Of a DNA stretch of 64,000 nucleotides, positions 11-31,967 are shown piece by piece. The number at the start of each line of letters is the position of its first letter. The stretch's first letter is position 1. This stretch comes from a virus. Lineage: Duplodnaviria; Caudoviricetes. Below the pieces are notes generated by a model. It made no database searches. It saw nothing but the letters and a program-made list of their open reading frames with translations, and had not been told where the DNA came from. The translations under genes were made by a program, and so were the position numbers. The stretch is taken from positions 34,114-98,113 of the IMG/VR virus record IMGVR_UViG_3300042393_000544. One strand, 5' to 3'.

Positions 11-3000
11 GTGATGCAGAAACTCGAGGACGTGAAGAACACGATCCCGCATGAGCTCACGCACACGCTGCAGCTCGGCAAGGGCGCGAACGTTAACCTT
101 GAGCGCGACCGCCAAGTCATGCAGCGTGCGCAAGGGTTGCCCGCTGCAACGCAACAAAGCGTGCTGCCTTCAACAAATCGTTTTGAGAACATGAAGGAAG
201 TCTGGGCGAACATCAACGCTCGGGCGCATGAGGTTAACGCAGCGGGCGGTGACTTCATCAACACACCCGAGGGCAGGGCGCTCTTCCCCACACCTGAGGC
301 GCAGCGCGAGTACTACACGAAGTCGATGCCGGGCGTGAACAGCATGACTCCTAGCACTGGCACATTTGTGCCGAATCGCCGATATGGTGAAGGCGGTGGT
401 GTATTTAACCCACAGGGGTCTGACTACGACTACCAGACGGCTCGCGCTTACGGCATGGGACAAGGGGACAACGGTCATTGGGGCTCGGTCGCACCCGCGT
501 CAGAAAGCGAGCGCAAGCTGCACGGCTTGCCCGAGGACAGCTACCTCATGCTCAAGGGCGCAGAGCACCCAACGTGGAGTAAGGCTGTTGAGGCAGAAGA
601 GTCTCGCGGCTCAAAAATCGTCAAGTACGGCGATCGCTACTACTCTGTGCCCAAGAAGGCCAACGGCGGTCAAGTGCAGCGTTTTGATGACGGCGGCGAA
701 GTCAGCCAGTCAGAGCTTGATCGCATGCGCTTCGAGATTGCACAACAACAGAACCCTAGCAGCCCTGTCATGCAGGCGACGCCACGCAGCCCGATACAGG
801 ACGCCATCGGCACGTTCGGTGGCTACATGGATCGTGCCGGCAAGTTCGTGAGCGAGGCGATTGCGCCGACCGCCGAGAAGCACCCGGTCAAGCATTTCCT
901 CGCGGATCTGATTCTGGCTTCGTCGCTCAAGAGCGCCGGCACCGCGCTGCAGGACTACACGGGCACCGCACGCGAGGCAGACGAGGACAACCCCGTGCGT
1001 GGCCTCATCGACAAGGACTGGCGCAAGCTCAGCACAGGCACCGAGCCGCTGCTCGACCCGCGGGCGCTGGACATCGCGGGCTTTGCAACACCAGTCGTCA
1101 GGGGTGCAACGAAGCTTGCCCGAGTGGGTGCGAAAGCCGTTGCCCCGTTTGCAACGAGGGTCGACGACATGGTGCGTGAACTCAGCGCGTCAGGCGCGAT
1201 CCCGCAGCCGGGTCTATCTATCAAGGATGTCACCCCCAAGGTGCTCGCCCCCGCCAACGCGCAGGGGTTCTACTCGCCGACCGAGGCGGCGGCATTGAAC
1301 CTGCAGCGCCAGTCTGGCAGCGGGCAGGCGTTGCTAAATGACATATTAAAGGGCGAGAACGTGCGCGCGGAGGAGGTCAGCGGGATGGGGCTCGATACGT
1401 TCTTGAAGGACAAGCCCAACGCTACGGCCGCCGAGGTGCAGGACTACATCGCCAAGAATAAACTACAACTGGGCGACAGGACCTACAAAAAAGAAAACGT
1501 GACGTGGGGCAAGAATGAAAACGGCGAGATAGTCACTGAGAACTTGCCGAACCCGTACACGATTTCAAGCGAGTACGGTAAGACGTACATCACCAATTCC
1601 AAAAACAATACGTTAGGCATAACGTTTAAAAACGAGGCAGAAGCTAAGAAGTACATCGAGGACTTGGTCGTCGATGACGCCCTGCTGCCCAACGACCTGA
1701 AGTGGGCGCAGTGGTCACTACCCGGTGGCGAGAACCACCGCGAAGTCACCCTGAACCTGCCAAGCGGCAAGCGCGAGGACATGGTCTACAAGGAGCAGAG
1801 CCTTGAAGCGCTCAAAAGAGGGGCGCTAGATTACGCGGCAATGGGCGACCTCAGCAGCGCCAAGCAGCTCTCAACAAGAGCCGAGAAGCTCGAGCGCGAG
1901 ATCGAGCAGTTAAAGCGTCAACCACAGAACCGCACGCCCGAGTTTCCCAAGCAAGCCGAGATTGATGACTTAGACGCGCGCATGGCGCAGCTAAAGGCCG
2001 AGGGTAATCGTGAAGAATTTGGCAAGCTACAGAGTGAAAGAACCGAGCTGCGTGCTGAGCGCAGTGCGTACTTAGCGCGCGAAGAAGCGCGGCTTCAAAA
2101 GGAAGCATACGCAAATCAATTCCGCGAATCGCACTGGGAGGACCCCAACGTGCTTGCCCACCTGCGCATGAGCGACCGCGTGACCGACGGCAAGAAGACG
2201 CTGCTGGTCGACGAGTTGCAGTCCGACTGGCACCAGAAGGGGCGTGAGCGCGGCTACAGGGGCGATGAGATTGACACCAAGGGCTGGACGGTCGAGAGCC
2301 TCTACGTCACCAAGCCGGAGGAGGTCGCCGTATATGACGCCCGGGGTAAGGAAATCTGGGCGGGTAAGTCAAAAGGTGACGAGGCACAGACCATAGCAAA
2401 GGTCGTGGAGGAGTTAAAGAAGAAGCAGGTACCACAGGCACCCTACAAGGACGACTACTACCAGCTCGCGTTACGCCGTGCTATTAAAGACGCGATTGAC
2501 GGCGGCTACGACCGCGTGGCGCTGCCCACGGGTTCGCGTGTGGCCGAGCGGTTTGGCACGGGTAGTCGCATCGATCGTCTTGACTACAACAAAAACTCCG
2601 ACGGCACCTACGGCATGTCGGCCATCAAAAACGGCCGCGAAGTCGCCGCAAGGGAGTACCTTAGCGAGGACGAGTTCTTCGGTCTTATTGGCAAAGATAT
2701 TGCAAAAAAAGTTGTTGACGAGGAGGGTGGTGTATCTAAAGAGGTTAAGGGTCGTTGGGGACCTGATGACGACTACTTTGAAAATTTCAAATCGCTTACA
2801 GGCCTTGACCATGTTATTGGCGGCAAGGGCATGAAGAAGTACTACGACGAGATTTACCCCGGCTACCTCAAGAAGTTTGGCAAGAAGTACGGCGCAAATG
2901 TTGGCAACACAACCGTTGACGCTGACGGCGTGGCCGAGCCTTTGTTCTACATGGACATCACTCCTGCGATGCGCAAGGAGTTCAGCACTGGCATTCACAT

Positions 3001-3073
3001 GAAGCGTGGCGGCAAGGTGTCGTTCGCCTCAAATGTTGACGCGATGCGTTACGAATTAAATAAAAGGCAATAA
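11..3073 (+). CDS. Large multidomain virion cargo / polyvalent-like protein (may start upstream of the window)
   Basis: 1020-aa ORF just upstream of the portal. Has xxGG motifs (KANGG, FDDGG, MKRGG) and a C-terminal HLRMSDR...LLVDELQSDWHQ block seen in phage polyvalent proteins. Confidence 0.6.
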   Translation: MMQKLEDVKNTIPHELTHTLQLGKGANVNLERDRQVMQRAQGLPAATQQSVLPSTNRFENMKEVWANINARAHEVNAAGGDFINTPEGRALFPTPEAQREYYTKSMPGVNSMTPSTGTFVPNRRYGEGGGVFNPQGSDYDYQTARAYGMGQGDNGHWGSVAPASESERKLHGLPEDSYLMLKGAEHPTWSKAVEAEESRGSKIVKYGDRYYSVPKKANGGQVQRFDDGGEVSQSELDRMRFEIAQQQNPSSPVMQATPRSPIQDAIGTFGGYMDRAGKFVSEAIAPTAEKHPVKHFLADLILASSLKSAGTALQDYTGTAREADEDNPVRGLIDKDWRKLSTGTEPLLDPRALDIAGFATPVVRGATKLARVGAKAVAPFATRVDDMVRELSASGAIPQPGLSIKDVTPKVLAPANAQGFYSPTEAAALNLQRQSGSGQALLNDILKGENVRAEEVSGMGLDTFLKDKPNATAAEVQDYIAKNKLQLGDRTYKKENVTWGKNENGEIVTENLPNPYTISSEYGKTYITNSKNNTLGITFKNEAEAKKYIEDLVVDDALLPNDLKWAQWSLPGGENHREVTLNLPSGKREDMVYKEQSLEALKRGALDYAAMGDLSSAKQLSTRAEKLEREIEQLKRQPQNRTPEFPKQAEIDDLDARMAQLKAEGNREEFGKLQSERTELRAERSAYLAREEARLQKEAYANQFRESHWEDPNVLAHLRMSDRVTDGKKTLLVDELQSDWHQKGRERGYRGDEIDTKGWTVESLYVTKPEEVAVYDARGKEIWAGKSKGDEAQTIAKVVEELKKKQVPQAPYKDDYYQLALRRAIKDAIDGGYDRVALPTGSRVAERFGTGSRIDRLDYNKNSDGTYGMSAIKNGREVAAREYLSEDEFFGLIGKDIAKKVVDEEGGVSKEVKGRWGPDDDYFENFKSLTGLDHVIGGKGMKKYYDEIYPGYLKKFGKKYGANVGNTTVDADGVAEPLFYMDITPAMRKEFSTGIHMKRGGKVSFASNVDAMRYELNKRQ

Positions 3074-3075: not shown

Positions 3076-5628
3076 ATGGCTACTGAAATGCCAATCCCGC
3101 AAGACTACGGCCGCTTCATCCCGCCCGCGGCGCAGGGTGACAACGAGTTTGCAAGCAGCGAGTTCGGTGACACCGCGGAGGTCGATCTGTTTGATCAACC
3201 CGACGTCGAGGAGCAGGACGACGGCTCAGCGATTGTGCGTCTAGATGATGACACGCTGGGGCCAGAAGACTCACCGGACTTCTACGAGAACTTAGCCGAA
3301 AGCATCCGTGCGTATGACTTATCGGGCATTGCGTCTAAGTACATCGAGCTCGTTGAGAAGGACAAGGACGCCCGCGAGGGACGTGATAAACAGTACGAAG
3401 AGGGCCTGCGTCGCACGGGACTTGGGCAAGACGCCCCCGGTGGTGCGTCGTTTATGGGGGCGAGTAAGGTCGTGCATCCGATCATGGCCGAGGGCTGCGT
3501 GGACTTTGCGGCGCGAGCCATCAAGGAGCTCTTCCCACCAGACGGGCCAGTGCGCTCAAAGATTCTGGGCGAGGTGACTGAGCAGAAGACGATGATCGCC
3601 GAGCGCAAGCGCGATTACATGAACTACCAGTTGACCGAGAAGATCGAGGAGTACCGTGACGAGGAAGAGCAGCTCTTAACCCAGTTACCGCTCGGTGGCT
3701 CGCAGTACATGAAGATCTGGTACGACGAGAGCAAGCGTCGTCCGTGCGCCGAGTTCCTGCCGATCGATAACGTGTACTTGCCCTTTGCCGCGGCGAACTT
3801 TTACACCGCGAGCCGTGTGACCGAGGTCAACGACATCACGCAGGACGACTTTGAGGCTCGCGTCTCATCAGGTCTGTACATCGATCTAGATATCTACCGT
3901 GCGAGCCAAGAGCCTGAGGAGAGTAAGCCTGAGAAGGCGAACAACAAGATTGAGGGTCGCAAGTCAGAGTCTGACAACATCGACGGCGTGCGGCGCGTGT
4001 TCCACATCTACACTTGGATGGAGCTCGAGGACGATCAGAAGTCCAAGGGCGAGCGTGCGCCCTACATCCTGATGATCGATGACCTGTCATCCGAGGTTGT
4101 GGGGCTGTACCGCAACTGGGAAGACGGCGACGAGCTCATGACTAAGCTCGACTGGATCGTTGAGTTTAAGTTCATCCCTTGGCGAGGTGCGTATGCAGTG
4201 GGTTTGCCCCATCTTATTGGCGGTCTGTCTGCTGCTCTTACTGGCGCTCTGCGGGCTCTGCTTGATTCTGCTCATATAAACAACGCCCCCACGATGCTTA
4301 AGCTCAAGGGCGGCAAGGTCTCAGGGCAGAGCATTGTTGTTGAGCCCACGCAGGTCACGGAGATCGAGGGTGCGCCGGGCGTGGACGACGTGAGAAAGAT
4401 CGCGATGCCGATGCCGTTTAACCAACCCTCTGCGGTGTTGTTTCAGCTCTTAGGCTGGCTCACATCGGCGGCTAAGGGTGTGGTCACCACGGCCGAAGAA
4501 AAGATCGCTAACGTCACCTCTAACGCCCCCGTAGGCACCACGCAGGCGCTGATCGAGCAGGGTGCTGCGGTGTTCTCATCCATCCACGCGCGGCTGCACA
4601 CAAGCCAAGCACGGGTGCTCAAGATCATCGGGCGCTTGAACCGCTGGTACTTGGATGACAACCCTGACGAGATGAGCCAAGAGTTAGGCGTCACCTCAAA
4701 GGACTTTGAGAAGAACTCTGACGTTGTACCAGTGTCTGATCCCCACATCTTTGCGGAGTCACAACGCTATGCACAAGTACAGGCTCTCGCCGCACGCGCG
4801 CAGGCGAATCCAGACTTATACAATCGACTGGCTGTTGAAAAGCGAATTCTTAAGCAGATCAAGCTTCCTGATATCAATGAAGTGCTACCTGATCCGCAAG
4901 ACGTTAAGGAAATGAACCCCGCGCTTGAGAACGTCGCCATGACGCTTGGTAAGCCCGTGGGCGCGTTTCCCAACCAAGAGCACTTAGCGCACATGCAAGT
5001 TCACTTGGACTACGCCAAGGACCCTATGTACGGCGCAAGTCCTATCATGGCCCCGGTGTTTATCCCCGCGATGCTTGAGCACTTAAAGCAGCACTTGACG
5101 CTCTGGTACCTGAACTCGATGGACCGGTACGCATCCAATGCGCTAGGCGAGCAGTTTGACATCCTGAAGGTGCAACCCATCATTCAGGAGGCGCAGAAAT
5201 TGCTTGCAGCGAGCTCGCAGCACGTGCACCAAGACACGCAGCAGCAGTTTGCGGGTGTGGTGCCGATCATGCAGCAGATGATCCAGACCATCCAGCAACT
5301 CAAAGCGCAGCAACAGCCTACTGATCCGTCAGTGCAGGCGCTTGTTCAGACCCAGATGGCCGAGACTAACCGTAAGGCGGCCGATGATCAGGCTCGTTTA
5401 CAGCTTGATGGCGCAAAGCTCGCGGCAGATACGAAGGCCAAGCAGGAGAAGAACGTTGCCGACCAGCAGATTAAGGCGGCAGAGCTCACGCACGACATCA
5501 ACTTACTCACGCTTGAGCAGCAGCACGAAGCACAGCGTCAACAACTCGCAGCACAACAGCAACAACAATTAGCAGCACAACAAGCAGCACAACAATCCCA
5601 ACCTGAAGCACCACCCCAAGGAGTTTAA
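3076..5628 (+). CDS. Portal protein (P22-like)
   Basis: 850 aa with acidic N-terminus, VVHPIMAEGCVDF, GTTQALIEQG..VFSSIHARLH and a Gln-rich coiled C-terminus; lies before scaffold and capsid genes. Confidence 0.85.
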   Translation: MATEMPIPQDYGRFIPPAAQGDNEFASSEFGDTAEVDLFDQPDVEEQDDGSAIVRLDDDTLGPEDSPDFYENLAESIRAYDLSGIASKYIELVEKDKDAREGRDKQYEEGLRRTGLGQDAPGGASFMGASKVVHPIMAEGCVDFAARAIKELFPPDGPVRSKILGEVTEQKTMIAERKRDYMNYQLTEKIEEYRDEEEQLLTQLPLGGSQYMKIWYDESKRRPCAEFLPIDNVYLPFAAANFYTASRVTEVNDITQDDFEARVSSGLYIDLDIYRASQEPEESKPEKANNKIEGRKSESDNIDGVRRVFHIYTWMELEDDQKSKGERAPYILMIDDLSSEVVGLYRNWEDGDELMTKLDWIVEFKFIPWRGAYAVGLPHLIGGLSAALTGALRALLDSAHINNAPTMLKLKGGKVSGQSIVVEPTQVTEIEGAPGVDDVRKIAMPMPFNQPSAVLFQLLGWLTSAAKGVVTTAEEKIANVTSNAPVGTTQALIEQGAAVFSSIHARLHTSQARVLKIIGRLNRWYLDDNPDEMSQELGVTSKDFEKNSDVVPVSDPHIFAESQRYAQVQALAARAQANPDLYNRLAVEKRILKQIKLPDINEVLPDPQDVKEMNPALENVAMTLGKPVGAFPNQEHLAHMQVHLDYAKDPMYGASPIMAPVFIPAMLEHLKQHLTLWYLNSMDRYASNALGEQFDILKVQPIIQEAQKLLAASSQHVHQDTQQQFAGVVPIMQQMIQTIQQLKAQQQPTDPSVQALVQTQMAETNRKAADDQARLQLDGAKLAADTKAKQEKNVADQQIKAAELTHDINLLTLEQQHEAQRQQLAAQQQQQLAAQQAAQQSQPEAPPQGV

Positions 5629-5630
5629 TC

Positions 5631-5912
5631 ATGTCAGACGCAATTTCACAACACAAACGCATGGCAATGGGCGAGTCTGTGCCTATGGCTAAGGGCAAGT
5701 CAGTCATTCAAAAGTACGCCAAGGGCGGCGCAGTCATGGCAGAGGGCGGCGCAGCTAATCTGCCAGCAAGAGGCGGCGTTCTAGAGCCAATGAAATCAAC
5801 GGGCGCAAAGATTGCCAGCCTTAAAAAAGGCGGCGCAGTGCCTAAGAAGGGCATGGGCTTGACGATCGCCATTGGCATCCCAGTGCGCAAAGCGGCCGGC
5901 CGTGGTCGTTAA
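5631..5912 (+). CDS. Small basic protein with repeated xxGG motifs (putative head cargo)
   Basis: AGGAG RBS; YAKGG, MAEGG, LKKGG. Confidence 0.7.
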   Translation: MSDAISQHKRMAMGESVPMAKGKSVIQKYAKGGAVMAEGGAANLPARGGVLEPMKSTGAKIASLKKGGAVPKKGMGLTIAIGIPVRKAAGRGR

Positions 5913-6093
5913 CCCAGTCAGCGACCTGATCGGCAAGATAAAGGAGCGGCGCTTAGAGTTGGCGCTGTCGCTTGCTGACGGCTACGCGATAAATATTGAG
6001 TCCTATCATCGGCTTGTCGGAACGTATCAGGGCTTAGGTGAAGCTCTAGACATACTTGACGAGATTTTGACAGAGAAAGACGAAGATTTGTAA
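5872..6093 (+). CDS. Small helical protein between portal and groES (true start probably later)
   Basis: IESYHRLVGTYQGL helical pattern; position typical of this head module. Confidence 0.6.
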   Translation: MASQCAKRPAVVVNPVSDLIGKIKERRLELALSLADGYAINIESYHRLVGTYQGLGEALDILDEILTEKDEDL

Positions 6094-6237
6094 CGCCTTT
6101 AGCAAGCGGGGTCGGGCTTTTGATAAGGGTCACCGACCTAACCACTCGGCTTTAGAGTTGACGCCTCGGAAAGACGAGGATAACCGCGCCGAATGGCGCT
6201 TTTAACCAAGTGCCGAATGGCGCTTTAAGGAGTAGGT

Positions 6238-6648
6238 ATGAAGGACTTTGAGACCCTCGACGAGGCGTTCCCGCAGTGTGTGCACGGCATTACCCCACTG
6301 GGCGCTCGAGTGTTGTTACAGCTCAAAAGCGTCAAAAAAGCGAGTAAAGGCGGCATCATTCTAGTAGAAGAAACACGCGAAACTGAGCGTGCGCAGTCAA
6401 TGATCGGCAAGGTCTTAGCACTTGGCCCGATCGCATTCAAAAACCGTGACACTTTATCCGAATGGGGCGAAGGCATCTGGTGCCAAGTCGGTGATTACGT
6501 GCGCGTGCCTCGCTGGTCAGGCGATCGGTTCACGGTTCCCAACCCAAACAACGCAGAAGACCAAGTTTCGCTGCAAATCCTGAACGATTTTGAGTTATGG
6601 GCAAAGGTTGACCCTGACCAAGTCTTAACCATGAGGCAATTCGTATGA
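6238..6648 (+). CDS. groES: Phage-encoded co-chaperonin GroES/Cpn10
   Basis: PLGARVLL...SKGGIIL...GKVLALGP...VGDYV Cpn10 signature; AAGGAG RBS. Confidence 0.9.
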   Translation: MKDFETLDEAFPQCVHGITPLGARVLLQLKSVKKASKGGIILVEETRETERAQSMIGKVLALGPIAFKNRDTLSEWGEGIWCQVGDYVRVPRWSGDRFTVPNPNNAEDQVSLQILNDFELWAKVDPDQVLTMRQFV

Positions 6649-7595
6649 ACTCAACAGAAAAAATGGAAATGCAGGTTGACGAGGAGCAAGACGGCTCCGC
6701 GATCGCCCAGTTACCCGAGGGCGAAGCGCCCGAAGCCGAAGAAAAACCCGAACTTGCCGAGGGTGGTGAGGTCGAAACTAACGACGGGCTCGATTCTGAC
6801 CCCGATCGTGAGCAAATTCGTGCTGCCCGACGCGAAGAGCGCAAGCTCAAGAAGCAAATTCATCGTGAAAAGACCAAAGAATCCAGTCACCTTATCAACA
6901 ACTTAAGAACACAGAACCAGCAGCTCTCGGAGCGCTTAGCGCACCTTGAAAAGCGCACCTCGGGGGCTGAATTAGCGCGTGTGGACAAGGCGATTGACGA
7001 CACCGAGGTGCAGATCGAGTACGCAAAGATGAAAATGCGTGAAGCGGTCGCAAATCAGGACGGCGACGCAGTTGTTAAGGCTCAGGAGCTGATGTACGAG
7101 TCGCAACGCAAGGTCGAGTCGCTTAAATCTATCAAAGATCAGGCAACCCGGCAGATGTCGCAGCCACCTAAGCCCACGATGAACGTGCCCGACCCGTCTG
7201 TTCAGCGCAATGCCGCGGAGTGGATGGAGCGCAACCCGTGGTACGACCCACAGGCAAAGGACATGGACTCTGAAATCGCTCAGCGCTTGGACAAAAAGCT
7301 CACCGACGAGGGTTACGACCCATCTTCGCCCGATTACTGGGATGAGCTTGATGATCGCGTCTCAAAGTACCTGCCGCATCGCACCGGCAATGCTGCACCG
7401 CAACGTTCTGCCCAACGCCCACGCATGACGGGCTCAGGGCGTGAGTCTGCACCAACTGGGCGCGGTAACGAGTTCAGGCTCTCTGCGGATCGTGTGCAGG
7501 CAATTAAGGACATGGGCGCGTGGGATAACCCCGATCAACGCGCAAAGATGATCAAATCCTACGCAAAGTATGACCGTGAAAACAAAAGGAACTAA
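6645..7595 (+). CDS. Capsid scaffolding protein
   Basis: Acidic N-terminus, long coiled coil, WMERNPWY motif; upstream of capsid genes. Confidence 0.7.
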   Translation: MNSTEKMEMQVDEEQDGSAIAQLPEGEAPEAEEKPELAEGGEVETNDGLDSDPDREQIRAARREERKLKKQIHREKTKESSHLINNLRTQNQQLSERLAHLEKRTSGAELARVDKAIDDTEVQIEYAKMKMREAVANQDGDAVVKAQELMYESQRKVESLKSIKDQATRQMSQPPKPTMNVPDPSVQRNAAEWMERNPWYDPQAKDMDSEIAQRLDKKLTDEGYDPSSPDYWDELDDRVSKYLPHRTGNAAPQRSAQRPRMTGSGRESAPTGRGNEFRLSADRVQAIKDMGAWDNPDQRAKMIKSYAKYDRENKRN

Positions 7596-7597
7596 TC

Positions 7598-8125
7598 ATG
7601 GATAGCCGCTTAAAACGCAGTGCCGGCGAGAGCCGCAACAACCGCACCGAGCAGGACGCATCGCGTGCAGCGCCCGAGGAGAACTTTCCGATCGTGCGCG
7701 AGCGTCGTCGTGCGCGTAACGAGTTTCAGCAGACCGTGCTACCGAATATCCCCGAGATACCCGGATTTCACCTGTGCTGGCTCGCTACAAACAGCCAGTA
7801 TGACCCGATTCACCGCCGGTTTTCACTAGGTTACATGCCTGTACGCGCCGACGAGATGCCGGGCTACGACATGTACAAGGTCAAGGAAGGCGATCAGTCG
7901 GGCCACATCATGTGCAACGAGATGCTGCTTTGCAAGATGCCGATGGATGTTTATCAAGACATCATGCTCGAGCACCACCACTTCCAGCCGATGGACGAGG
8001 CCGACAAGATTCGCGTCGACCAAGAGCAACTCGTGAGCCAGCGCGACCGATCAGGCAAGGCGGCGGGTAGCATTGAGGGTAGCTTGCCAGATGAAAGTAA
8101 CGTGAAATTGCCACACTTTAGTTGA
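7598..8125 (+). CDS. Conserved phage head-module protein
   Basis: PEIPGFHLCW..GY.PV motif; AAGGA RBS. Confidence 0.6.
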   Translation: MDSRLKRSAGESRNNRTEQDASRAAPEENFPIVRERRRARNEFQQTVLPNIPEIPGFHLCWLATNSQYDPIHRRFSLGYMPVRADEMPGYDMYKVKEGDQSGHIMCNEMLLCKMPMDVYQDIMLEHHHFQPMDEADKIRVDQEQLVSQRDRSGKAAGSIEGSLPDESNVKLPHFS

Positions 8126-8129
8126 AATA

Positions 8130-8160
8130 GTTTTACTTTTTGTAAAAACGTATTAAAATC
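8130..8160 (+). promoter_or_regulatory. Probable promoter for the capsid operon
   Basis: AT-rich island ending in TAAAAT within a GC-rich region, ahead of a ~135-nt leader. Confidence 0.4.
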
Positions 8161-8296
8161 AGCATCAAGTCGCCCGTTTTGTATAAAGCGGGTGACAACA
8201 AAATTTAGTCCTAAAAATCATGTTTCAGATGATTTTGCCTGTAGCTTTGAAGAAAGCGAAAACATTATCCCTTTAACTGTTTTTTAGGAGCATCCT

Positions 8297-8884
8297 ATGA
8301 GTGCAACCTCTGCACCTTTTGGCCTGCGACCTGCGTATTTCCCAACAGGGTTGGAACGCGCACAAGCACTGGCTAATGGAATTACTTCAGGCTACGGCAC
8401 ATCAATCCTGAAGGGTCAAGCTGTTCAGTACTCGCCTAACGCTGGCGTCATCTTGCCAGTTCTGGACACAACAACCAACAGCGGTCAAGTCTCTGGTGCC
8501 TTCGCAGGCGTCGAGTGGACTGACACAACTGGTCGTCGCCGTGTCTCTAACTACTGGCCTGCAAGCACTACTGCAATCGCCGGTAGCGTCGTCGCCTATT
8601 TCTACAACGATCAGCAGATCGTCTACGAAATTCAGACTGACGGCACAATGGCTCAGACGGCAGTCGGCAACGAAGCCAATCTGAGCAACTTCACTGCGGG
8701 CTCAACAACTACAGGTCTGTCGCAAATGACCCTGTCAGCCTCCTTGGCTGGTTCAGGCTCTGCAGCCCAGTTCCGCATTGTTGATCTGGCTCCCTATGTA
8801 GACAATAACTGGGGTGACCCATACGTGATCGTTCGCGTACAAGTCAGCAAACCACAGTTCGTTGCTACTGTTAACGCTATCTAA
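8297..8884 (+). CDS. Capsid decoration / auxiliary head protein
   Basis: APFGLRP N-terminus, beta-rich, directly before the major capsid gene. Confidence 0.65.
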   Translation: MSATSAPFGLRPAYFPTGLERAQALANGITSGYGTSILKGQAVQYSPNAGVILPVLDTTTNSGQVSGAFAGVEWTDTTGRRRVSNYWPASTTAIAGSVVAYFYNDQQIVYEIQTDGTMAQTAVGNEANLSNFTAGSTTTGLSQMTLSASLAGSGSAAQFRIVDLAPYVDNNWGDPYVIVRVQVSKPQFVATVNAI

Positions 8885-8897
8885 GGGGGACTAGAAA

Positions 8898-9812
8898 ATG
8901 GCCGCTCCAATGCGCAGTACGGACTTCCGATCGATTGTTGAGCCAATCCTCAACGAATGCTTCGACGGAATCTATGACCAACGAGCCGATGAGTGGAGCA
9001 CAGTGTTCCGCGAGCAAATGGGCATCCCAAGAAACTACCACGAAGAACCCGTCCTGTACGGTTTCGGCGCGGCACCTCAGTTACCTGACGGCACCCCCGT
9101 CTCGTACCAGCAGGGCGGCGTGCTGTTCCTCCAACGCTATGTGTACAACGTTTATGGCTTAGCCTTCGCGTTGACCAAAGTCTTGGTTGAGGACGGCGAT
9201 CACATCCGTATCGGTCAGGTCTACGCTAAACACTTAGCGCAGTCGTTGATTGAGACAAAAGAACTGCTCGCAGCTAACGTATTGAACCGTGCGTTCAATA
9301 GCAGCTACGTCGGCGGCGACGGCGTCTCACTCACCAACACCTCGCACCCGATCGTAAACGGCGTGTTCAGCAACCAGCTCACGACCGCAGCTAACTTGTC
9401 GCAAACTTCGCTTGAGCAGATGCTCATCCAAGTGCGCCAAGCTGTGGACAACAACGGCAAGAAGATCCGTCTTCAGCCGCTGAAGCTGATCGTTGCACCG
9501 GGCAACGTGTTCCAAGCAGAAGTTCTGCTCAAGTCTGTGCTCCGTACCGGCACCGCCAACAACGACATCAACCCAGTCAAGTCGATTGGTCTGATGCCCG
9601 AGGGCGCTTCGGTACTGAGCCGTTTGACTTCAGCCACCAACTGGTGGGTGCAGACTGACGCGCCAGAAGGTCTGAAGTTGATGATGCGCCGTGGTCTTGA
9701 AAAGACTATGGAAGGCGACTTTGAGACTGACTCAATGCGCTACAAGGCAACAGAGCGGTACACGATTTCGTGGACTGACCCTCGCGCAGTGTACGGGACT
9801 CCCGGAGTCTAA
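8898..9812 (+). CDS. Major capsid protein (HK97 fold, Mu gpT-like)
   Basis: GGDGVSL...HP, LIVAP and DFETDSMRYKATERY..WTDPR motifs; followed by a terminator. Confidence 0.9.
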   Translation: MAAPMRSTDFRSIVEPILNECFDGIYDQRADEWSTVFREQMGIPRNYHEEPVLYGFGAAPQLPDGTPVSYQQGGVLFLQRYVYNVYGLAFALTKVLVEDGDHIRIGQVYAKHLAQSLIETKELLAANVLNRAFNSSYVGGDGVSLTNTSHPIVNGVFSNQLTTAANLSQTSLEQMLIQVRQAVDNNGKKIRLQPLKLIVAPGNVFQAEVLLKSVLRTGTANNDINPVKSIGLMPEGASVLSRLTSATNWWVQTDAPEGLKLMMRRGLEKTMEGDFETDSMRYKATERYTISWTDPRAVYGTPGV

Positions 9813-9820
9813 AGTAGAAC

Positions 9821-9851
9821 AGGGGCTAGCATAAAACCTAGCCCCTTTTTC
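9821..9851 (+). terminator. Rho-independent terminator after the capsid gene
   Basis: AGGGGCTAG-loop-CTAGCCCCT followed by a T run. Confidence 0.85.
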
Positions 9852-9888
9852 AATCAACCCGAGTGGTTCAAGCCACAGGAGATTAAAA

Positions 9889-10876: not shown

Positions 10877-11431
10877 ATGGGTTTCAAAGAGATGAAGATG
10901 ATGAAGTCAACCGAGCCCTCAGTTGATGAGGCCGGCAAGGGCATGAAGAAGGGCGGCAAGCTAAAGATGCAAATGGGCGGTGCAATGCCTACTGCTCCTC
11001 TAGCCGCTGCAGCCCAACCTATGGGTCGTCGTCCCATGCCCTCGCGCCCAGCAATGGGTCGCCCAGCAATGGGTCGCAAGCCTGATCCTCGCGCAGCAAT
11101 GCTCGAGGCCGCGATGGCTCAGCGTGCAGGCGCTGGTGCTGCCCCGATGATGCGCAAGAAAGGCGGCGAAGTTGAGAGCAAGGCGATGCACATGAAAGAA
11201 GAGCGCCAGATCAAGGGCATCAAGAAAGAGCTGATGTCTCATGAGGGCAAGCCAGCGTCTAAGGCTCACAAGGGTCTTAAAACTGGCGGCATGCCCAAGT
11301 ATGCAACTGGCGGCGTTGTTCAGAAGTACGCAACCGGCGGTGTTGTGCAGAAGTTTGCAGACGGTGGCTTCGCTAAAGTAGCGTGCAAAGACGGCGGCGG
11401 CTTTAAGGCGATGAAAAAAGGCGGTTGCTAG
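10877..11431 (+). CDS. Basic, Met/Lys-rich protein with about nine xxGG motifs
   Basis: MKKGG, MQMGG, RKKGG, LKTGG, YATGG x2, FADGG, CKDGG, MKKGG. Confidence 0.75.
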   Translation: MGFKEMKMMKSTEPSVDEAGKGMKKGGKLKMQMGGAMPTAPLAAAAQPMGRRPMPSRPAMGRPAMGRKPDPRAAMLEAAMAQRAGAGAAPMMRKKGGEVESKAMHMKEERQIKGIKKELMSHEGKPASKAHKGLKTGGMPKYATGGVVQKYATGGVVQKFADGGFAKVACKDGGGFKAMKKGGC

Positions 11432-12263: not shown

Positions 12264-12776
12264 ATGCCGAGCAAATCACCTGCCCAAAAGCGCTTGATGC
12301 AGGCCGCCGCTCACACTAAGGGTGGGTTCGGCGGTGTGCCTCAGAAGGTCGGTAAAGAGTTTGCGGCGGCTGATAAGATGAAAAGCGGTGGGCTATACGC
12401 CAACATCCACAAAAAACAGGAACGTATTGCTGCGGGCTCGGGCGAGCGTATGCGCAAGGTAGGCAGCGCAGGAGCACCGACCGCAGCAGCTTTTAAGCAG
12501 TCTGCAAAGACTGCAAAGATGAAAGACGGCGGTGATGTCTCTTTAGCAGTCGGTCGGGGCGAGAAATTGCCAACAGATCAGGGCGCGGGACTCACAGCCA
12601 AAGGTCGTGCGAAGTACAATGCAGCAACAGGGTCGAACCTGAAAGCCCCTCAGCCAGAGGGCGGTAGCCGTAAAAATTCATTTTGCGCCAGAATGTCTGG
12701 TGTAGTCAAGCACGCAAGCGGCGATGCGCCACGCGCAAAAGCCTCCTTAAAACGCTGGAAATGTCCGGGGTGGTAG
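12264..12776 (+). CDS. Basic three-module protein joined by MKxGG linkers; C-terminal SFCARM...RWKC (DUF6321-like) module
   Basis: MKSGG and MKDGG separate three basic segments. Confidence 0.7.
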   Translation: MPSKSPAQKRLMQAAAHTKGGFGGVPQKVGKEFAAADKMKSGGLYANIHKKQERIAAGSGERMRKVGSAGAPTAAAFKQSAKTAKMKDGGDVSLAVGRGEKLPTDQGAGLTAKGRAKYNAATGSNLKAPQPEGGSRKNSFCARMSGVVKHASGDAPRAKASLKRWKCPGW

Positions 12777-20586: not shown

Positions 20587-20599
20587 TTAAGGAAAGATC

Positions 20600-22347: not shown

Positions 22348-22356
22348 GAGCTAATA

Positions 22357-22982: not shown

Positions 22983-22985
22983 ATC

Positions 22986-26730: not shown

Positions 26731-26981
26731 TGAGTACCGGCACAACACAATCCCCAAACCTGCCAACACCCCCTGTTGAGTATGAGCAACGTTACCTTGA
26801 GCAGTTAACAAACGTTCTTAGATTGTATTTTTCACAGCTAGATAATCCGGGATTTTCTGCGGCAAGTGGTTTAAACTTGAATATAGATAAACTTCCGACC
26901 CAAACAAGTCTCGCTGACCTACGGGTTGGCGATGTGTACCGCGACACAACAGCCGGTAATGTCCTAAAGGTCAAAGTATGA
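26730..26981 (+). CDS. Small tail protein
   Basis: PNLP.PP.EY...LRLYF.QLD; coupled to both neighbours. Confidence 0.55.
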   Translation: MSTGTTQSPNLPTPPVEYEQRYLEQLTNVLRLYFSQLDNPGFSAASGLNLNIDKLPTQTSLADLRVGDVYRDTTAGNVLKVKV

Positions 26982-29089
26982 GCTTAACTAAAATTGCACA
27001 ATATTTAGAACATCAAGGTCGTGGTGACGATAAGCATTTAGTTCATATGACTAAAGGCGAACTGCAAGCCTTGCAAAAATTAGCTGAACAAAATGGCGGA
27101 TCTCTTACGATTAACCCGCAAACTGGTCTTCCAGAAGCTGGGTTTTTAAGTAGCATTTTGCCAATGGTTGCAGGCGCAGCAATGGTAGCTTTAGCACCAG
27201 CAACTGGCGGCTTATCAATGTTAGGCAATCCATTAGTAGCTGGAGCTATTGTTGGTGCTGGCAGTTATGCAATGACGGGAAGTCTTCAACAAGGCGTAAT
27301 GGCTGGTCTAAGCGCTTATGGTGGAGGTGCTTTGGCTGGTGGGTTAGGCGCAATTGGCGCGGGTGCAACAGATGTTGCCACTAGTACCTTGGCTAATGAG
27401 GCAGGCAATGTTGCTGGACAAGAAGCCGTAAAAGTAGCGGCTGCACAAGGGATTACAGATCAGGCGGCATTAAACGCAATTCAACAACAGGCAATAGATT
27501 CTGGTGCAAACGCTGTTGGTCAAGTTGCAAGCCCAAAAAGTTTAGCAAGTATTGGTGGAGGATTGTCCAATCCATCAGGCACAGGAATTACTCAGTCATT
27601 ATCAAACCTTGGTAGCTTTGCCAAGAATAATGTCGGGGCATTAGCAGGTTTAGGACTTGGGGCGTATCAAGCCTTTCAAGATTCTAATAAATCGTCTGAA
27701 CCAGAAACTGATGCCGCCCCAAATCCTTTTGGATTGAAAACAATTCCAAAGGATGCAAATGGCAATCCTATTTTTAAACCATCATTGCCAACTCCTCCCG
27801 CTCAACCGTATCAAGCACAGTACAGAAATTACGTGCAGAACCCATACAACCCAATGAGCGCAAAGAGTGGTGGGTTAATGGATGTTCCTAAGTATGCAGG
27901 TAAAACTGATTACGGAAGTATGGTTTCAGGCGCTAAAGATCTTCAACAGGGTTTATCACAAGCCAGTCAAGCAGCCCCATTAACGCCATTGCAAGAACAG
28001 TTAATTGCTATGGGACAGCGTAGCTCTCAAGAAGGTCTTTATAACTTGAGCGATATTGAATACGCTAAGTTATCACCTAAAGAATTGATGAAAAAACACA
28101 AGATTGATATTGCTAAAGGCTTGTCAGAGGTTGGCGCTTTGGGTGCTTATGACACAAAATCCGCTACACAATTACAAGCGGAAGCTGCCGCACAAGCTGA
28201 TATTGCCAAGAGTCAAAGTCGAACTTCTGCTAAAGAAGGCGGTTTAATGGCGTTTGCAGAAGGTGGATCTCCTATTTATCATCCTCAATATCAAAATTTT
28301 GCTCCTACGGCGTACCAACAACGAGACTCAACCCTCGCGCAATTACAAGCTGAAAATCAAGCATACATGAATCAAGGTATTCCTGAGTTTTCTAGACTAG
28401 CAAGTAATGTTGGTTACGCAATTGACCCAATGCAAATGAAAGGATCGCCTGCTTTACAAGCGTTTAAAGCAGATGAAGCCGCAAAATTAGCTGCCACTAA
28501 TCTCATAATGCAACAGCAACAACAAATGGCTGGTTATGGTTCTAACCAAAACACCGGTGATGGTATGGGCGATGATGGGGGCGGCACTGTAGGTCAAGGC
28601 ATGGGAGCTGGCGGTGAAGGTGGTGAAGGTGGCGATGGTGGCGCTTCGGGTGGAAATGGTGGGTCTGCGTTTGCAATAGGTGGTGGTATTGGATCTGATT
28701 ACGGTGTGTTTGCCGACAATAGCAATTCAAATAGTGGGATGGATCAATTCCATCGAGGTCAACAATATCCTATGCAGCAACCACAGAATTTTAATAACGG
28801 CGGTAGCACCAATAATCTTGGCGGTTATTCTGATGGAGGTCGTTTACTTAAAGGACCCGGCGATGGTGTTAGCGATGGTATACCTGCTACGATTAACGGT
28901 CGTCAGCCTGCTCGTCTTGCTGATGGTGAGTTTGTCATTCCTGCTAGGATTGTTTCTGAATTGGGGAATGGGTCTACAGATGCCGGTGCTAAACGTCTGT
29001 ATGCCATGATGGATCGAATTAAAAGTGCAAGATCCAAAGCAAAAAATATTGCAACCGACACAAAAGCATATAAACACTTACCAGCATGA
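26978..29089 (+). CDS. Ejection / internal virion protein with TM region, xxGG motifs and a tape-measure-type C-terminal domain
   Basis: GRGDD.LVH...NPQTGLPEA N-terminus; hydrophobic G/A segment; C-terminal GPGDGVSDGIPA...LADGEFVIPA. Confidence 0.7.
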   Translation: MSLTKIAQYLEHQGRGDDKHLVHMTKGELQALQKLAEQNGGSLTINPQTGLPEAGFLSSILPMVAGAAMVALAPATGGLSMLGNPLVAGAIVGAGSYAMTGSLQQGVMAGLSAYGGGALAGGLGAIGAGATDVATSTLANEAGNVAGQEAVKVAAAQGITDQAALNAIQQQAIDSGANAVGQVASPKSLASIGGGLSNPSGTGITQSLSNLGSFAKNNVGALAGLGLGAYQAFQDSNKSSEPETDAAPNPFGLKTIPKDANGNPIFKPSLPTPPAQPYQAQYRNYVQNPYNPMSAKSGGLMDVPKYAGKTDYGSMVSGAKDLQQGLSQASQAAPLTPLQEQLIAMGQRSSQEGLYNLSDIEYAKLSPKELMKKHKIDIAKGLSEVGALGAYDTKSATQLQAEAAAQADIAKSQSRTSAKEGGLMAFAEGGSPIYHPQYQNFAPTAYQQRDSTLAQLQAENQAYMNQGIPEFSRLASNVGYAIDPMQMKGSPALQAFKADEAAKLAATNLIMQQQQQMAGYGSNQNTGDGMGDDGGGTVGQGMGAGGEGGEGGDGGASGGNGGSAFAIGGGIGSDYGVFADNSNSNSGMDQFHRGQQYPMQQPQNFNNGGSTNNLGGYSDGGRLLKGPGDGVSDGIPATINGRQPARLADGEFVIPARIVSELGNGSTDAGAKRLYAMMDRIKSARSKAKNIATDTKAYKHLPA

Positions 29090-29496
29090 ACGTACAGTAT
29101 GTTCCCATTCATCATGTAAACCAAACTTGGCCTCTTGTTTCGGGTTTTTTGCAGGCAGCAATTGAACAACAGTCTGGCAACAAAGACTATACGCTAGAAC
29201 AGGTTCAGGTTTATGTAAGCAGTGGTCAATGGGTTTTATTGGTTGCAACTAAAGACGAAAATATTGTTGGTGCAGCTACAGTTAATTTGTTTAATCGACC
29301 CAATAATCGTGTTGCTTTTATTACGTATATTGGTGGGCATTTAATTGTTGGTGAAGATTCGTTTAAACAGATGTGCCAAGTCTTAAAAACTTATGGGGCT
29401 ACGTCTATAGAAGGCGCTGTTAATGATGCTGTTGCTAGATTGTGGCAACGCTTTGGGTTCGTTGAAAAATACAAAATTGTTGAGGTTGCGCTATGA
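29086..29496 (+). CDS. GNAT-like protein among the ejection genes
   Basis: IVGAA..., IEG....VARLWQRFGF GNAT-like pattern. Confidence 0.55.
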   Translation: MNVQYVPIHHVNQTWPLVSGFLQAAIEQQSGNKDYTLEQVQVYVSSGQWVLLVATKDENIVGAATVNLFNRPNNRVAFITYIGGHLIVGEDSFKQMCQVLKTYGATSIEGAVNDAVARLWQRFGFVEKYKIVEVAL

Positions 29497-31967
29497 GATA
29501 TAACCATTTTGACATGCTGCCTGATCGGGCTTTTCTTAAAGTCGGTGGACGAATTAAACCTCAAGGTGGCGGCAGCGGTGGTTCGCCAAGCAGCACGACA
29601 GTAACAAACACTAATATTCCCGAATATGCTCAACCATATGTCGGCAATATGATGAATGCTGCACAGGCGCAAATTTACAATAAGGATATGACGGGGTTTA
29701 ATAAATACACCCCTTACAGCACAGATCCAACAAATTATGTAGCCGGATTTAGCCCTTTACAACAGCAAGGATTTTCTTCTCTTGCCAATATGGACATTGC
29801 CCCGCAGATTGCGATGGGTACAGATTGGGCTAATAAAGGCGCACAAGGGGGTATAGAGTCGGCTCCTGTAGCTTACAACTATGGCGCTCAAGGTTCGCAG
29901 GCTGGACAACAAGGTCTAGGTATTGGTGTTTCGGGTGGGCTTGAGTATGGCGGTAGGGCAACTGATCTAGCAGGCGCTAACATTGGTATTGGTGCGGCTG
30001 GCATGGGTGCAGGAATGGGTTATGGGCAGGCTGCTCAGAATCCATACGCCGTTCAACGTTACATGAACCCATATTTACAAGCGTCTTTGCAACCTCAACT
30101 TGCAGAAATGAGTCGCCAGTACGGTATTTCAGGTACACAACAGCAGAGCAATGCAACTAAAGCTGGAGCTTTTGGTGGAAGCCGTGAAGCGTTAATGGCA
30201 TCTGAAAATCAACGCAACAAAAATATTGCGATGAACCAAGCGATTGGTCAGGGCTATAACAACGCTTACGATGTTGCCAACAAAAATATGCAGGCTGGCG
30301 CTTCCCTTGGTATGCAGGGGGCGCAGTCTGGTCTTGCTGGTTTACAAGGTGCAAACCAAAGTTACGCTACTGGACTGCAAGGTGTTAATACAGCATTAGC
30401 TGGAACTGCTCAAGGTATGCAAGGCGCACAAACTGGATTACAAGGTGTTGCTGGAGCGCAAGCAGGGTATGGTCTTAGTATTCAAGGTGCTAATGCGCTT
30501 AATGCACTGGCTAATACTCAATACAACCAAGAAATGGGTATTGCTCAAGCCCAAATGGGTGCTGGCGCTCAACAGCAAGGGCAACAACAGAACATTATTA
30601 ACCAAGCTGTTCAAAACTACGCAACAGAACAACAGTATCCATACATGCAGTTGGGTCAGCTCAATGCAATGTTGCGGGGATTGCCAATGCAGCAGTCTAC
30701 TACGCAGATGTATCAAGCGCCGCCAAGTACGATTTCACAATTAGGTGGAGCAGGTATCGCTGGACTGGGTGCAACGGCAATGTATAACGCAGCAACCAAA
30801 GCTGAAGGCGGCGTAATTAAAATGGCTTCGGGCGGCTCCGCTATTCCAATGCGTAGAATGAGTGAACAGCAATTAAAACAAGTTCAACAAAGCCCAGCAT
30901 CTAGCCCATTGGCAAAGATTAACGCTGTAGGGTTAGAGCAGTTGCATGGCTATATGAAAAACAATCCACAAGCTGCTCAGATGTTTCAACAGGCTCCACC
31001 AGTTCCTGAACCCGTCAACGCTCGTTCAGGCGTGGCGGCTATTGGCACAGGCGACATGACGCAAATGGCAGGTGGTGGGATTATTGCGTTTGCTGAACCA
31101 ACCGCAGAAAACAATAACGGTTTGGTAACTAGTAAAGAAGACGCTATTCCTCGCACTAAAGATGGTGAAATAGATTATGGTACTTATCTTGCTACTAGGT
31201 TAGCAGCGCAAGACTCTGGAAAGAACTCTGTTGCTACAGCCTATAAGCCATTGGCAGAAACCCAAGCAGCGGATATTAAACAGCAAAGAGCCATGTTATT
31301 GCCTGAACTGGCAACACGATTTGGTCTTGGTTTAATGAGTTCGCCGGGTGGTCGAGGTGGTTCTGTATTAAATAGAACCCTTCAAGACGTAGGCGCTTCA
31401 GGATTGGGTACACTTCAAGATATGTCGGGTAAACTTAAAGACATTGAAGCGGCTAAGAAAACTATGCAACAAGGTACGATTGAAGCTACCAAAGCCGATC
31501 AAGCCCGTAGAGATTCTACGACAAATACTATTGCTCAAGTGTTTGGAACAATCGAAGCCAAGAAGATCGGTCTTGCTCAAGCGGCGGCTACTCGTGCTGC
31601 TGGACTTGATGCCAAAGAAGCTGCATTACTAAATGCTGCATCTTCACAATATATGACTTCGGTAGAGCGTGTATTTAAAGATTTGGCAACACAGCAAAAG
31701 AATGCCATGTTGTTTGAAAACGAACCAGAAAAACTGTGGGCGTTGGCTCGTCGCCAAGTATATGAGGCAATGCCTGAAGTCACTCGTAAGTTGCTTAACC
31801 TGCAAACTCCGGTCGCTGCTCCACCAGTTGCACAGGCTACACCTCCAGTCGTTACGCCGCCAACACCACAGAGAACCAATCCTGCAATGCCAGCAGTGCC
31901 GCAAGGACAGTTTAGATGGGATCCTGCTGCAAATGGCGGCAAGGGTGCAATGGTTCCAATCAAATAA
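29493..31967 (+). CDS. DNA ejection / pilot protein
   Basis: Q/G/A-rich helical; YMNPY, AGAFGGSR; xxGG motifs KAEGG, MASGG, MAGGG. Confidence 0.7.
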   Translation: MRYNHFDMLPDRAFLKVGGRIKPQGGGSGGSPSSTTVTNTNIPEYAQPYVGNMMNAAQAQIYNKDMTGFNKYTPYSTDPTNYVAGFSPLQQQGFSSLANMDIAPQIAMGTDWANKGAQGGIESAPVAYNYGAQGSQAGQQGLGIGVSGGLEYGGRATDLAGANIGIGAAGMGAGMGYGQAAQNPYAVQRYMNPYLQASLQPQLAEMSRQYGISGTQQQSNATKAGAFGGSREALMASENQRNKNIAMNQAIGQGYNNAYDVANKNMQAGASLGMQGAQSGLAGLQGANQSYATGLQGVNTALAGTAQGMQGAQTGLQGVAGAQAGYGLSIQGANALNALANTQYNQEMGIAQAQMGAGAQQQGQQQNIINQAVQNYATEQQYPYMQLGQLNAMLRGLPMQQSTTQMYQAPPSTISQLGGAGIAGLGATAMYNAATKAEGGVIKMASGGSAIPMRRMSEQQLKQVQQSPASSPLAKINAVGLEQLHGYMKNNPQAAQMFQQAPPVPEPVNARSGVAAIGTGDMTQMAGGGIIAFAEPTAENNNGLVTSKEDAIPRTKDGEIDYGTYLATRLAAQDSGKNSVATAYKPLAETQAADIKQQRAMLLPELATRFGLGLMSSPGGRGGSVLNRTLQDVGASGLGTLQDMSGKLKDIEAAKKTMQQGTIEATKADQARRDSTTNTIAQVFGTIEAKKIGLAQAAATRAAGLDAKEAALLNAASSQYMTSVERVFKDLATQQKNAMLFENEPEKLWALARRQVYEAMPEVTRKLLNLQTPVAAPPVAQATPPVVTPPTPQRTNPAMPAVPQGQFRWDPAANGGKGAMVPIK

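Follow-up and report, generated by a model that had tools for sequence, protein, structure and literature searches.

A short peptide built around two consecutive glycines (GG) recurs in otherwise unrelated proteins encoded by a 64,000-nt stretch of viral DNA, hereafter the window, which corresponds to bases 34114-98113 of one 98,113-bp virus record (IMGVR_UViG_3300042393_000544). The gene set of the window is that of a phage virion module. An earlier note on this DNA had described the peptide as a pentapeptide, here rendered as the regular expression (regex) [FYMLK][AKQ].GG, and had regarded it as a genome-wide tag for the encapsidation and/or maturation cleavage of head cargo. The features that carry it are listed below; coordinates refer to the window, and those marked as contig positions to the whole record.

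Contig 30974-37186 (window part 2..3073), plus strand: open reading frame (ORF) of 2070 amino acids (aa), between the large terminase and portal genes; copies in the window KANGGQV (656-670), FDDGGEV (683-697) and MKRGGKV (2999-3013).
5631..5912, plus strand: p93, 93 aa, beginning 3 nt past the portal stop codon; units YAKGGAV (5715-5729), MAEGGAA (5736-5750) and LKKGGAV (5820-5834).
6645..7595, plus strand: scaffold-like protein, 316 aa; one copy, LAEGGEV (6753-6767), in an acidic N-terminal linker.
10877..11431, plus strand: p184, a Gly/Lys/Ala/Met-rich array with seven regex copies and about nine units (10943-11425).
11297-11359, plus strand: 27-nt tandem repeat, 2.3 copies, inside p184, encoding K-Y-A-T-G-G-V-V-Q, that is, one unit.
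12264..12776, plus strand: p170, with a Pfam match to DUF6321 (E=2.5e-15).
26978..29089, plus strand: 703-aa protein, tape-measure-like or ejection-type, in the part of the record that is low in guanine plus cytosine (GC).
29493..31967, plus strand: 824-aa ejection-type protein, Ala/Gly/Gln-rich, also in the low-GC part; copies LKVGG (29535-29549), the doublet KAEGGVIKMASGG (30798-30836) and MAGGG (31065-31079).

As for the inventory in the earlier note, all 18 pentapeptides that it named for six proteins are found in those proteins, and the limits that it set for the motif, 650 and 31080, agree with the first and last instances (KANGG and MAGGG). Other entries stand in part: p184 had been credited with about nine copies, of which the regex gives 7, and about nine is reached once RKKGG and CKDGG are added; AKSGG, AKEGG, FNNGG, YSDGG and FDDGG are present but do not fit the regex; and the ORF 11-3073 does hold copies, but is merely the C-terminal half of the 2070-aa ORF, which has four further regex matches upstream of the window.

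Enrichment of the motif in the record

The regex was tested on 128 ORFs of 50 aa or more, greedy-called across the whole 98-kb record, with four Gly_rich_2 paralogs (>25% Gly) removed beforehand; the four nulls were a whole-protein shuffle and a 20-residue local shuffle, each repeated with all glycines fixed. It had 34 matches against 10.1-14.8 expected, and 0/500 shuffles reached 34. The seven proteins singled out in the earlier note hold 25 copies versus 3.7-6.7 expected (0/2000 shuffles), while no enrichment occurs in the 22 other late-module proteins (3 versus 2.5-3.0 expected) or in the remaining 99 proteins (6 versus 3.8-5.0 expected). The values for the individual carriers are the following:

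p184: 7 copies, 0.69 expected, 0/2000 shuffles.
2070-aa protein: 6 copies, 0.93 expected, 1/2000 shuffles.
p93: 3 copies, 0.27 expected, 4/2000 shuffles.
824-aa protein: 4 copies, 0.89 expected, 21/2000 shuffles.
Scaffold-like protein: 1 copy, 0.02 expected, 32/2000 shuffles.
p170: 2 copies, 0.29 expected, 65/2000 shuffles.
703-aa protein: 2 copies, 0.76 expected, 341/2000 shuffles, not significant alone under the regex.

It should be noted that the regex was built from the same data that it scores here, so that the weight rests on the replications elsewhere. Pooling all GG sites of a genome into one logo diluted the signal.

Replication in relatives and ortholog sets

By portal similarity, the nearest relative is the uncultured phage MW202545 (59.6%), with Caulobacter phage RW and its kin at 49%; other portal relatives are Roseobacter phages CRP-901 and CRP-902, phage DSL-LC04, and Pelagibacter phages HTVC027P and HTVC023P. 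A scan with the capsid gene found at least 595 relatives, and, among the motif-carrier families, one has 5959 database relatives and another at least 8000. The motif-bearing phages are one abundant aquatic podovirus-like clade.

With the regex fixed, five GenBank loci were tested, all partial genomes covering 42-50 kb of 52-62 kb. MW202545, the closest GenBank relative, had 25 matches versus 6.2 expected (0/300 shuffles), and these were in syntenic proteins: 11 in the 449-aa counterpart of p184, 4 in the giant protein preceding the portal, 4 in the tape-measure-like protein and 2 in the p170 counterpart. DSL-LC04 had 10 versus 5.0 (12/300), or 10 versus 3.3 with a stricter pattern (2/300), and HTVC027P had 7 versus 4.6 (62/300). 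No excess was found in phage RW (4 versus 4.5 expected, with 2/4 in an ORF antisense to annotated genes), which keeps only the N-terminal piece of p93, or in CRP-901 (1 versus 5.1 expected). Five complete relatives of 57-59 kb and 43-55% GC each held 15-23 matches versus 5.8-7.0 expected, with 0/200 shuffles reaching the observed number in each case.

The same holds for the protein families. For p170, 150 diverse representatives of the family gave 123 matches versus 23.2 expected; 120 homologs of the C-terminal domain of the 703-aa protein gave 319 versus 75.7, and the N-terminal parts of 30 non-redundant tape-measure-like homologs, with that domain cut off, gave 57 versus 15.9 (0/300). Ortholog sets were drawn from 80 viral contigs with capsid proteins at least 88% identical: p93 had 95 copies versus 7.2 expected in 32 non-redundant orthologs, p184 had 439 versus 38.7 in 50 non-redundant orthologs (4-15 copies each), the p170 orthologs had 62 versus 8.0, and the scaffold had one copy in 14/47. 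The portal had 1 copy versus 5.0 expected in 40 non-redundant orthologs, p325 had 2 copies, and the p175, p195, GroES-like and adaptor sets had 0. These sets indicate that the motif is retained while the flanking sequence diverges to 39-65% identity. A tblastn search of p184 against GenBank phages found no match.

Two of the first observations are supported: a single short motif is common to non-homologous low-complexity virion-module proteins, and early and replication genes, together with the folded structural proteins, lie outside the excess.

Two phages in one record

The 98-kb record probably consists of two related phages joined at a shared stretch of 1.1 kb. In 3-kb bins, GC is 51-64% (one bin 46%) up to roughly contig position 54-56 kb and 42-49% beyond it, a drop from about 55% to about 45%; contig positions 3-1140 and 57545-58682 are 86% identical, and the endolysin and its neighboring gene are present twice. 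Moreover, a protein of the type of the 1509-aa protein of the high-GC part occurs in 5/5 relatives of 57-59 kb, rated 91-100% complete, and the 824-aa protein of the low-GC part in 0/5 of them. The first phage probably covers window 1 to about 23,400 and the second the rest, including the 26978 and 29493 genes; the junction was placed near window 21,000-23,400. Since the record probably holds two phages, the "genome-wide" tag of the earlier note spans two related genomes: the enrichment is real, the wording is weakened, and yet the record supplies a replicate of the motif.

For several small proteins encoded in the early region of the high-GC part, paralogs (35-88% identity) occur in the low-GC part, the regions being contig 14815-16896 versus 82825-84533 and 89483-89866, with short DNA stretches that are 95-96% identical; this paralogy and the near-identical DNA are compatible with the two phages having exchanged sequences.

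Anatomy of the motif

The aligned copies point to a true unit of seven residues, [M/Y/F/L]-[A/K]-x-G-G-x-[V/A/I/M]. Position -3 is restricted to M, Y, F or L and position -2 to A or K; +1 is free, being mostly K, H, A, S or V, and +2 is V, I, L, M, A or F in 80/86 p93 units and 291/382 p184 units, so that five of the seven positions are conserved (-3, -2, both glycines, and +2). Units are often flanked by further glycines, as in GG-Y-K-x-GG, and doublets with units 7-10 residues apart are common, examples being AKEGGLMAFAEGG, KAEGGVIKMASGG and YAKGGAVMAEGG. The ejection-type proteins carry an Ala-type variant, [MFY]-A-x-GG, in non-basic contexts, and the first half of their doublets reads A-K-E-G-G-[LIV]-M. 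Many carriers terminate in GG plus 1-7 residues; the motif falls within the last 13 residues in 51/1022 distinct C-termini, versus 36.7 on average and 51 at most in randomly chosen internal windows, a weak excess.

Selection acts on the protein, not on the RNA. Of the glycine codons of the motif, 87% are GGC or GGT; strong Shine-Dalgarno (SD)-like strings occur in 23/813 instances, and SD-like strings lie upstream of 26% of the Met-type copies, 30% of the Tyr/Phe/Leu-type copies and 71% of the called gene starts.

In p93, the two GG pairs are invariant in 28 aligned orthologs at a mean column identity of 42%; conservation is concentrated in two blocks, YA+GG+V and KIAT+KKGG, between which the linkers differ in length and sequence. 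Its C-terminus has a short hydrophobic stretch followed by a basic GRGR tail, and this end (KKGG ... GLTIAIGIPV ... RKAAGRGR) was considered as a GlyGly-CTERM signal, in which GG precedes a transmembrane helix and a C-terminal basic cluster, and to which it is similar in outline only: no NCBIfam match was found at E<=0.1, and the hydrophobic run is of about 10 residues and starts seven residues after GG. A search for fused forms of p93 among 160 longer candidates gave none at E<=0.001, which is weak evidence. Both p93 and p184 have a conserved N-terminal stretch that closes in a GG unit.

As for p184, it contains 15.9% G, 14.8% K, 10.8% A and 7.6% M, and ends in ...MKKGG-C. Copy number correlates with length in a set of 48 proteins (r=0.85), and the most frequent distances between units are 8-9, 11-12 and about 37-42 residues. 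The 27-nt tandem duplication accounts for two or three of the p184 copies, and suggests that the units multiply through local duplication. The copy of the scaffold-like protein is sporadic: the regex matches 14 of 42 aligned N-termini, 27 have a GG, and the positions are variable.

The p170 protein has three helical modules, A, B (LYANIHKK...) and C (DUF6321), linked by MKSGG (12378-12392) and MKDGG (12519-12533). An AlphaFold2 (AF2) model built from a 94-row alignment had a mean predicted local distance difference test score (pLDDT) of 76 and a predicted template modeling score of 0.43; in this model, helices 27-41 and 44-56 are separated by a break that holds MKSGG, and MKDGG lies in residues 87-90, the sole segment with pLDDT <50. 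Compared with the PDB, the model gave a best E=1.6. In the family, the modules are shuffled with the motif at each junction (first 90/150 representatives), and where they exist as separate ORFs the start Met takes the first position of the motif, MAKKG-VSL... versus MKEGG-VSL.... Family layout and model agree with the earlier remark that the motif sits at module junctions and composition boundaries.

Two side observations concern this family. Its module kit (N-terminal MPSKSPAQ..., LYANIHAKRxRI...SAKTAK, and DUF6321) is shuffled, repeated or split among viral proteins. A Cys occurs within the last three residues of many members, and of most p184 orthologs as well (...KSCW, ...KCNY, ...GGxC).

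Hydrophobic segments rich in Gly and Ala lie in the N-terminal part of the 703-aa protein, which also has the doublet AKEGGLMAFAEGG (28229-28267) and the sites FAIGG, FNNGG and YSDGG. Its C-terminal domain, GPGxGxSDxIPA...LSDGEFV...GxGS...GAK (about 28840-29089), is conserved in 6/6 compared proteins, most of which, including that of RW, have one motif copy directly N-terminal to it; at least 8000 database relatives of the domain were found, with no Pfam match and no PDB sequence match at E<=0.1. The same domain is found at the C-terminus of the 1509-aa protein (contig 5329-9858) and twice in a protein of MW202545.

Other genes of the virion module

The remaining features of the region are the following:

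Upstream of the window: large terminase, before the 2070-aa ORF.
3076..5628, plus strand: portal, 850 aa, phrog_1216 (E=7.5e-15), with 0 motif copies.
6181-6226: 24-nt tandem repeat, 2 copies, GC-rich and with internal dyad symmetry, in the gap 5' of the GroES-like gene.
6238..6648, plus strand: GroES-like co-chaperonin, Cpn10 E=1.3e-7 (above the Pfam cutoff), with no motif copy.
7598..8125, plus strand: p175, a conserved head-module protein with no motif copies.
8898..9812, plus strand: HK97-type major capsid protein, 304 aa, Phage_capsid_4 E=4e-10.
16653-21541: four paralogous Gly_rich_2-domain proteins in tandem, 29-35% Gly.
19707-20195: HNH endonuclease gene, which together with a phrog_7759 gene lies between Gly_rich_2 paralogs three and four.
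29086-29496: 136-aa ORF between the 703-aa and 824-aa proteins, with a faint match to GNAT acetyltransferases (E=0.076).
31980..43613, plus strand: DarB-like polyvalent protein, 3877 aa; the best PHROG match is DarB-like antirestriction.

The order of the genes after the portal is p93, GroES-like protein, 316-aa scaffold-like protein, p175, p195 and HK97-type capsid protein; then come p325, p184, p278, p170, an SU10-type adaptor and the four Gly_rich_2 paralogs, followed by a holin, a GH108 endolysin, a 709-aa structural protein, the 703-aa and 824-aa low-complexity proteins and the DarB-like protein. Motif-bearing genes flank the portal gene on both sides. A complex prediction with the portal monomer (37-row alignment) and p93 (28-row alignment) scored 0.00 and 0.00 versus a mark of 0.32, in a run without controls, and is uninformative on their binding. 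The capsid protein has one regex match, YQQGG, within its fold, which is kept as part of the fold. The GroES-like gene lies just 5' of the scaffold gene, and is annotated there in 5/5 compared GenBank phages. CRP-901 has an annotated GNAT gene among its virion-protein genes, adjoining a gene whose product weakly resembles the 824-aa protein.

Invariant residues of p175 are H58, C60, D69, N107, E108, H127 and H128, and its AF2 model has a mean pLDDT of 75; in the ESM Atlas it matched unnamed viral clusters only, and for p195 the leads, to phage cement families, were weak (0.81-0.83). PDB sequence searches with p175, p195 and the 2070-aa protein found nothing at E<=0.1. The 3877-aa protein contains an FtsK-gamma domain, a lysin-like region, methyltransferase-like regions, a Strawberry-notch-type helicase and LPD38.

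A putative docking or assembly tag as the favored reading

The motif sits in exposed, flexible junctions of fast-evolving low-complexity virion-module proteins. The peptides may constitute a multivalent docking or assembly tag read by a putative common partner, a reading suggested by their sequence pattern and given a probability of about 0.38; it is favored over an intrinsic hinge-and-sticker grammar and over cleavage because of the position-specific conservation, the exposure, the multivalency, and the sharing among unrelated virion-module proteins. The peptides would then be copies of one seven-residue short linear motif, often doubled, and the partner could be an assembly site on the procapsid or portal core, or another motif-bearing protein; its binding would carry unrelated proteins into the particle or keep them assembled inside it, with copy number setting the avidity, units gained by local duplication, and the carriers staying uncut. 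Of the two functions envisaged in the earlier note, packaging is still the best reading, in this conditional form, and cleavage is unsupported.

The nearest functional analogues are probably the T4 capsid-targeting sequence, the cargo peptides of encapsulins and the adenovirus protease sites, from each of which the motif differs in consensus, copy number, position, or lack of a protease. The T4 sequence is present in one N-terminal copy and is removed by the prohead protease at Leu/Ile-x-Glu; like the motif, it is a short peptide shared by unrelated proteins, in its case ending inside the head, but the motif has many copies and a GG chemistry. Encapsulin cargo-loading peptides bind the inside of an HK97-fold shell, usually as a single terminal copy. 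They are similar in being short and Gly-rich, with spaced hydrophobic residues, unrelated cargo, an HK97-fold shell and no need for cleavage; they differ in consensus and in the single terminal copy.

Several points weigh against a docking tag. We infer both the common partner and, from gene position alone, the presence of the carriers in virions; the "head cargo" of the earlier note is likewise a putative location, and the DarB-like protein, which would be the likeliest to be packaged, is not enriched (1 versus 1.11 expected). DarB-type proteins are packaged in phage P1. Second, the ortholog counts mostly reflect homologous positions rather than independent events. Third, RW and CRP-901 share the homologous portal, GroES-like protein and scaffold, with the capsid gene in the same order, and yet have no enrichment, which contradicts universality and implies either that a partner among the shared core proteins would differ by lineage or that the motif is dispensable for assembly. 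Finally, comparable conservation could also stem from a particular local structure or from a property inherent to disordered chains.

This last point leads to the possible, on balance unlikely, explanation that ranks next: a Gly-Gly hinge plus a hydrophobic "sticker" in Lys/Gly-rich chains, acting as an intrinsic grammar with no dedicated partner and giving elasticity, self-association or DNA co-condensation, with p184 and p93 as basic internal proteins. Sticker repeats of this kind are known in the FG repeats of nucleoporins and in the Gly/aromatic repeats of elastomeric or phase-separating proteins, and they share with the motif short hydrophobic-plus-glycine units along disordered chains and a variable copy number. 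In agreement with it, p184 is Gly/Lys-rich with variable length and copy number, AF2 puts the motif at low-confidence breaks, units often have further Gly at their sides, the scaffold copy is sporadic with a shifting position, and whole lineages (RW and CRP-901) manage without the motif. Stickers driven by composition, however, would be expected to be looser than a unit with position-specific conservation over seven residues, five of them conserved, and shared across non-homologous proteins of one virus; moreover, the Ala-type units of the ejection-type proteins are in non-basic contexts, so DNA binding cannot be the common denominator.

Cleavage and the search for a protease

Maturation sites cut after Gly-Gly by a phage or host protease, freeing modules and small basic peptides, are an improbable alternative to docking. 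The sites of the adenovirus protease adenain, which occur in core and capsid precursors, follow the consensus (M/L/I)xGG-x and are little constrained past P1'. The pattern of the motif resembles this one: both have a hydrophobic -3 and Gly-Gly at -1/0, are shared by unrelated virion proteins, and occur in several copies in basic core proteins; furthermore, in the p170 family the motif is exactly at the module junctions and the same modules exist as ORFs starting there, and many proteins end shortly after GG. Nevertheless, although P4 and GG fit, Tyr and Phe are common here at -3, and -2 (A/K) and +2 (V/A) are restricted, so that conservation runs two residues beyond the presumed cut. In contrast with adenain sites, the units form tandem arrays and 8-residue doublets in an HK97-type capsid lineage, with a C48 peptidase in 0/5 records; cutting doublets 7-10 residues apart would yield octapeptides. 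Pro stands right after GG in 13/80 junctions of the p170 family, and most GG-specific proteases handle Pro in that position poorly. The excess at C-termini is weak, as reported above, and fission at the nearest ATG would equally give ORFs that start at the Met of the motif.

Double-glycine leaders, cut by the C39 peptidase domains of ABC exporters, are the other known system with this chemistry; they are single N-terminal leaders of 15-30 residues. The likeness lies in Gly-Gly after hydrophobic positions, and in the N-terminal stretch of p184 and p93 that ends in a GG unit; the difference is that the motif is internal, multiple and also C-terminal, and that a C39 domain (PF03412) was found in 0/5 phage records, with 7/14 control genomes matched.

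Regarding other proteases, S78, ClpP and S49 had matches in 0/5 records, and their profiles matched 4, 13 and 12 control genomes, respectively, in accordance with the earlier statement that no conventional prohead protease was recognizable. C48 (PF02902) had 0/5, with one control genome matched. The zeros for C5 (PF00770; 0/5 records, and 0/14 control genomes) and S77 (0/5) carry no information since their controls were silent too. Scans against Pfam, PHROGs and NCBIfam gave no peptidase above threshold, and the PHROG protease-family matches of ORF 8898 are to the capsid part of fused protease-capsid profiles.

Two candidates for a hidden protease were rejected. The first, p175, matches no protease fold: its model gave a Foldseek best E=0.48 (GNAT-type rows, TM about 0.2) and a VIA wide best Z=5.0 that involved the long C-terminal helix only. 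This lack of a fold match is no evidence for a new fold. The second is the HELTH sequence (HExxH; window 41-55, residue 1064 of the 2070-aa ORF), which falls inside a low-scoring match (E=0.019) to the "putative metallopeptidase" family DUF6782, and for this reason speaks for cleavage; the match is below the Pfam cutoff, and the region has no counterpart in proteins of the motif-positive relatives at E<1e-3.

The more particular proposal that a Gly-Gly protease of phage or host origin, with a fold named in none of the libraries, matures the virion proteins by dicing p184-type arrays and freeing p170-type modules is slightly more doubtful still; if true, this would be adenovirus-style maturation in an HK97-lineage virus without any conventional prohead protease.

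Chaperonin mimicry and nucleotide-level explanations

It is very improbable that the motif mimics the mobile loop of GroES (...K-x-A-G-G-I-V-L) and binds host GroEL. The idea draws on the GroES-like protein, whose gene is beside that of the scaffold and which reads KKASKGGIIL in the mobile-loop region, and on the A-K-E-G-G-[LIV]-M of the ejection-protein doublets; multivalency would also suit a heptameric ring. On the other hand, the loop of the phage GroES lacks the aromatic residue or Met at -3 and the A/K at -2, the regex matches 0/33 GroES-like orthologs, and the motif is lacking in RW and CRP-901 despite their GroES-like gene. For GroEL binding it matters that a hydrophobic tripeptide follows GG; this tripeptide is missing here, +1 being mostly K, H, A, S or V and +2 the sole hydrophobic position.

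The least probable explanation is that there is no protein feature at all but a by-product of composition or an RNA signal (SD-like strings, or translation beginning internally at Met copies), to which the purine-rich K/E-G-G codons, the frequent Met at -3 and the stand-alone modules beginning there might point, and against which stand the local and Gly-fixed shuffles that never attain the observed counts, the persistence of the enrichment from 43% to 55% GC, the avoidance of GGA and GGG, the scarcity of strong SD-like strings and the lack of an SD excess at Met-type copies (0.26 versus 0.30, and 0.71 at gene starts).

Significance

In conclusion, this is a robust motif that is widespread and apparently new to the literature: the papers searched, which did not extend to subscription journals, gave no account of it in phages, and no paper was found on DUF6321. 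Its kind is apparently already known, namely, short peptide signals shared by virion proteins. Eukaryotic and animal-virus proteins are wired to a large extent through short linear motifs, which have hardly been charted in phages; here, one seven-residue unit is common to at least five non-homologous virion-module families of very abundant aquatic phages. If the unit were a cleavage site, a new type of protease would await discovery. If it is an address or assembly tag, as favored here, it would give a rule to predict which "hypothetical" low-complexity proteins accompany the particle, a means of placing foreign proteins in phage particles, and a case of multivalent peptide tags that evolve by duplication.

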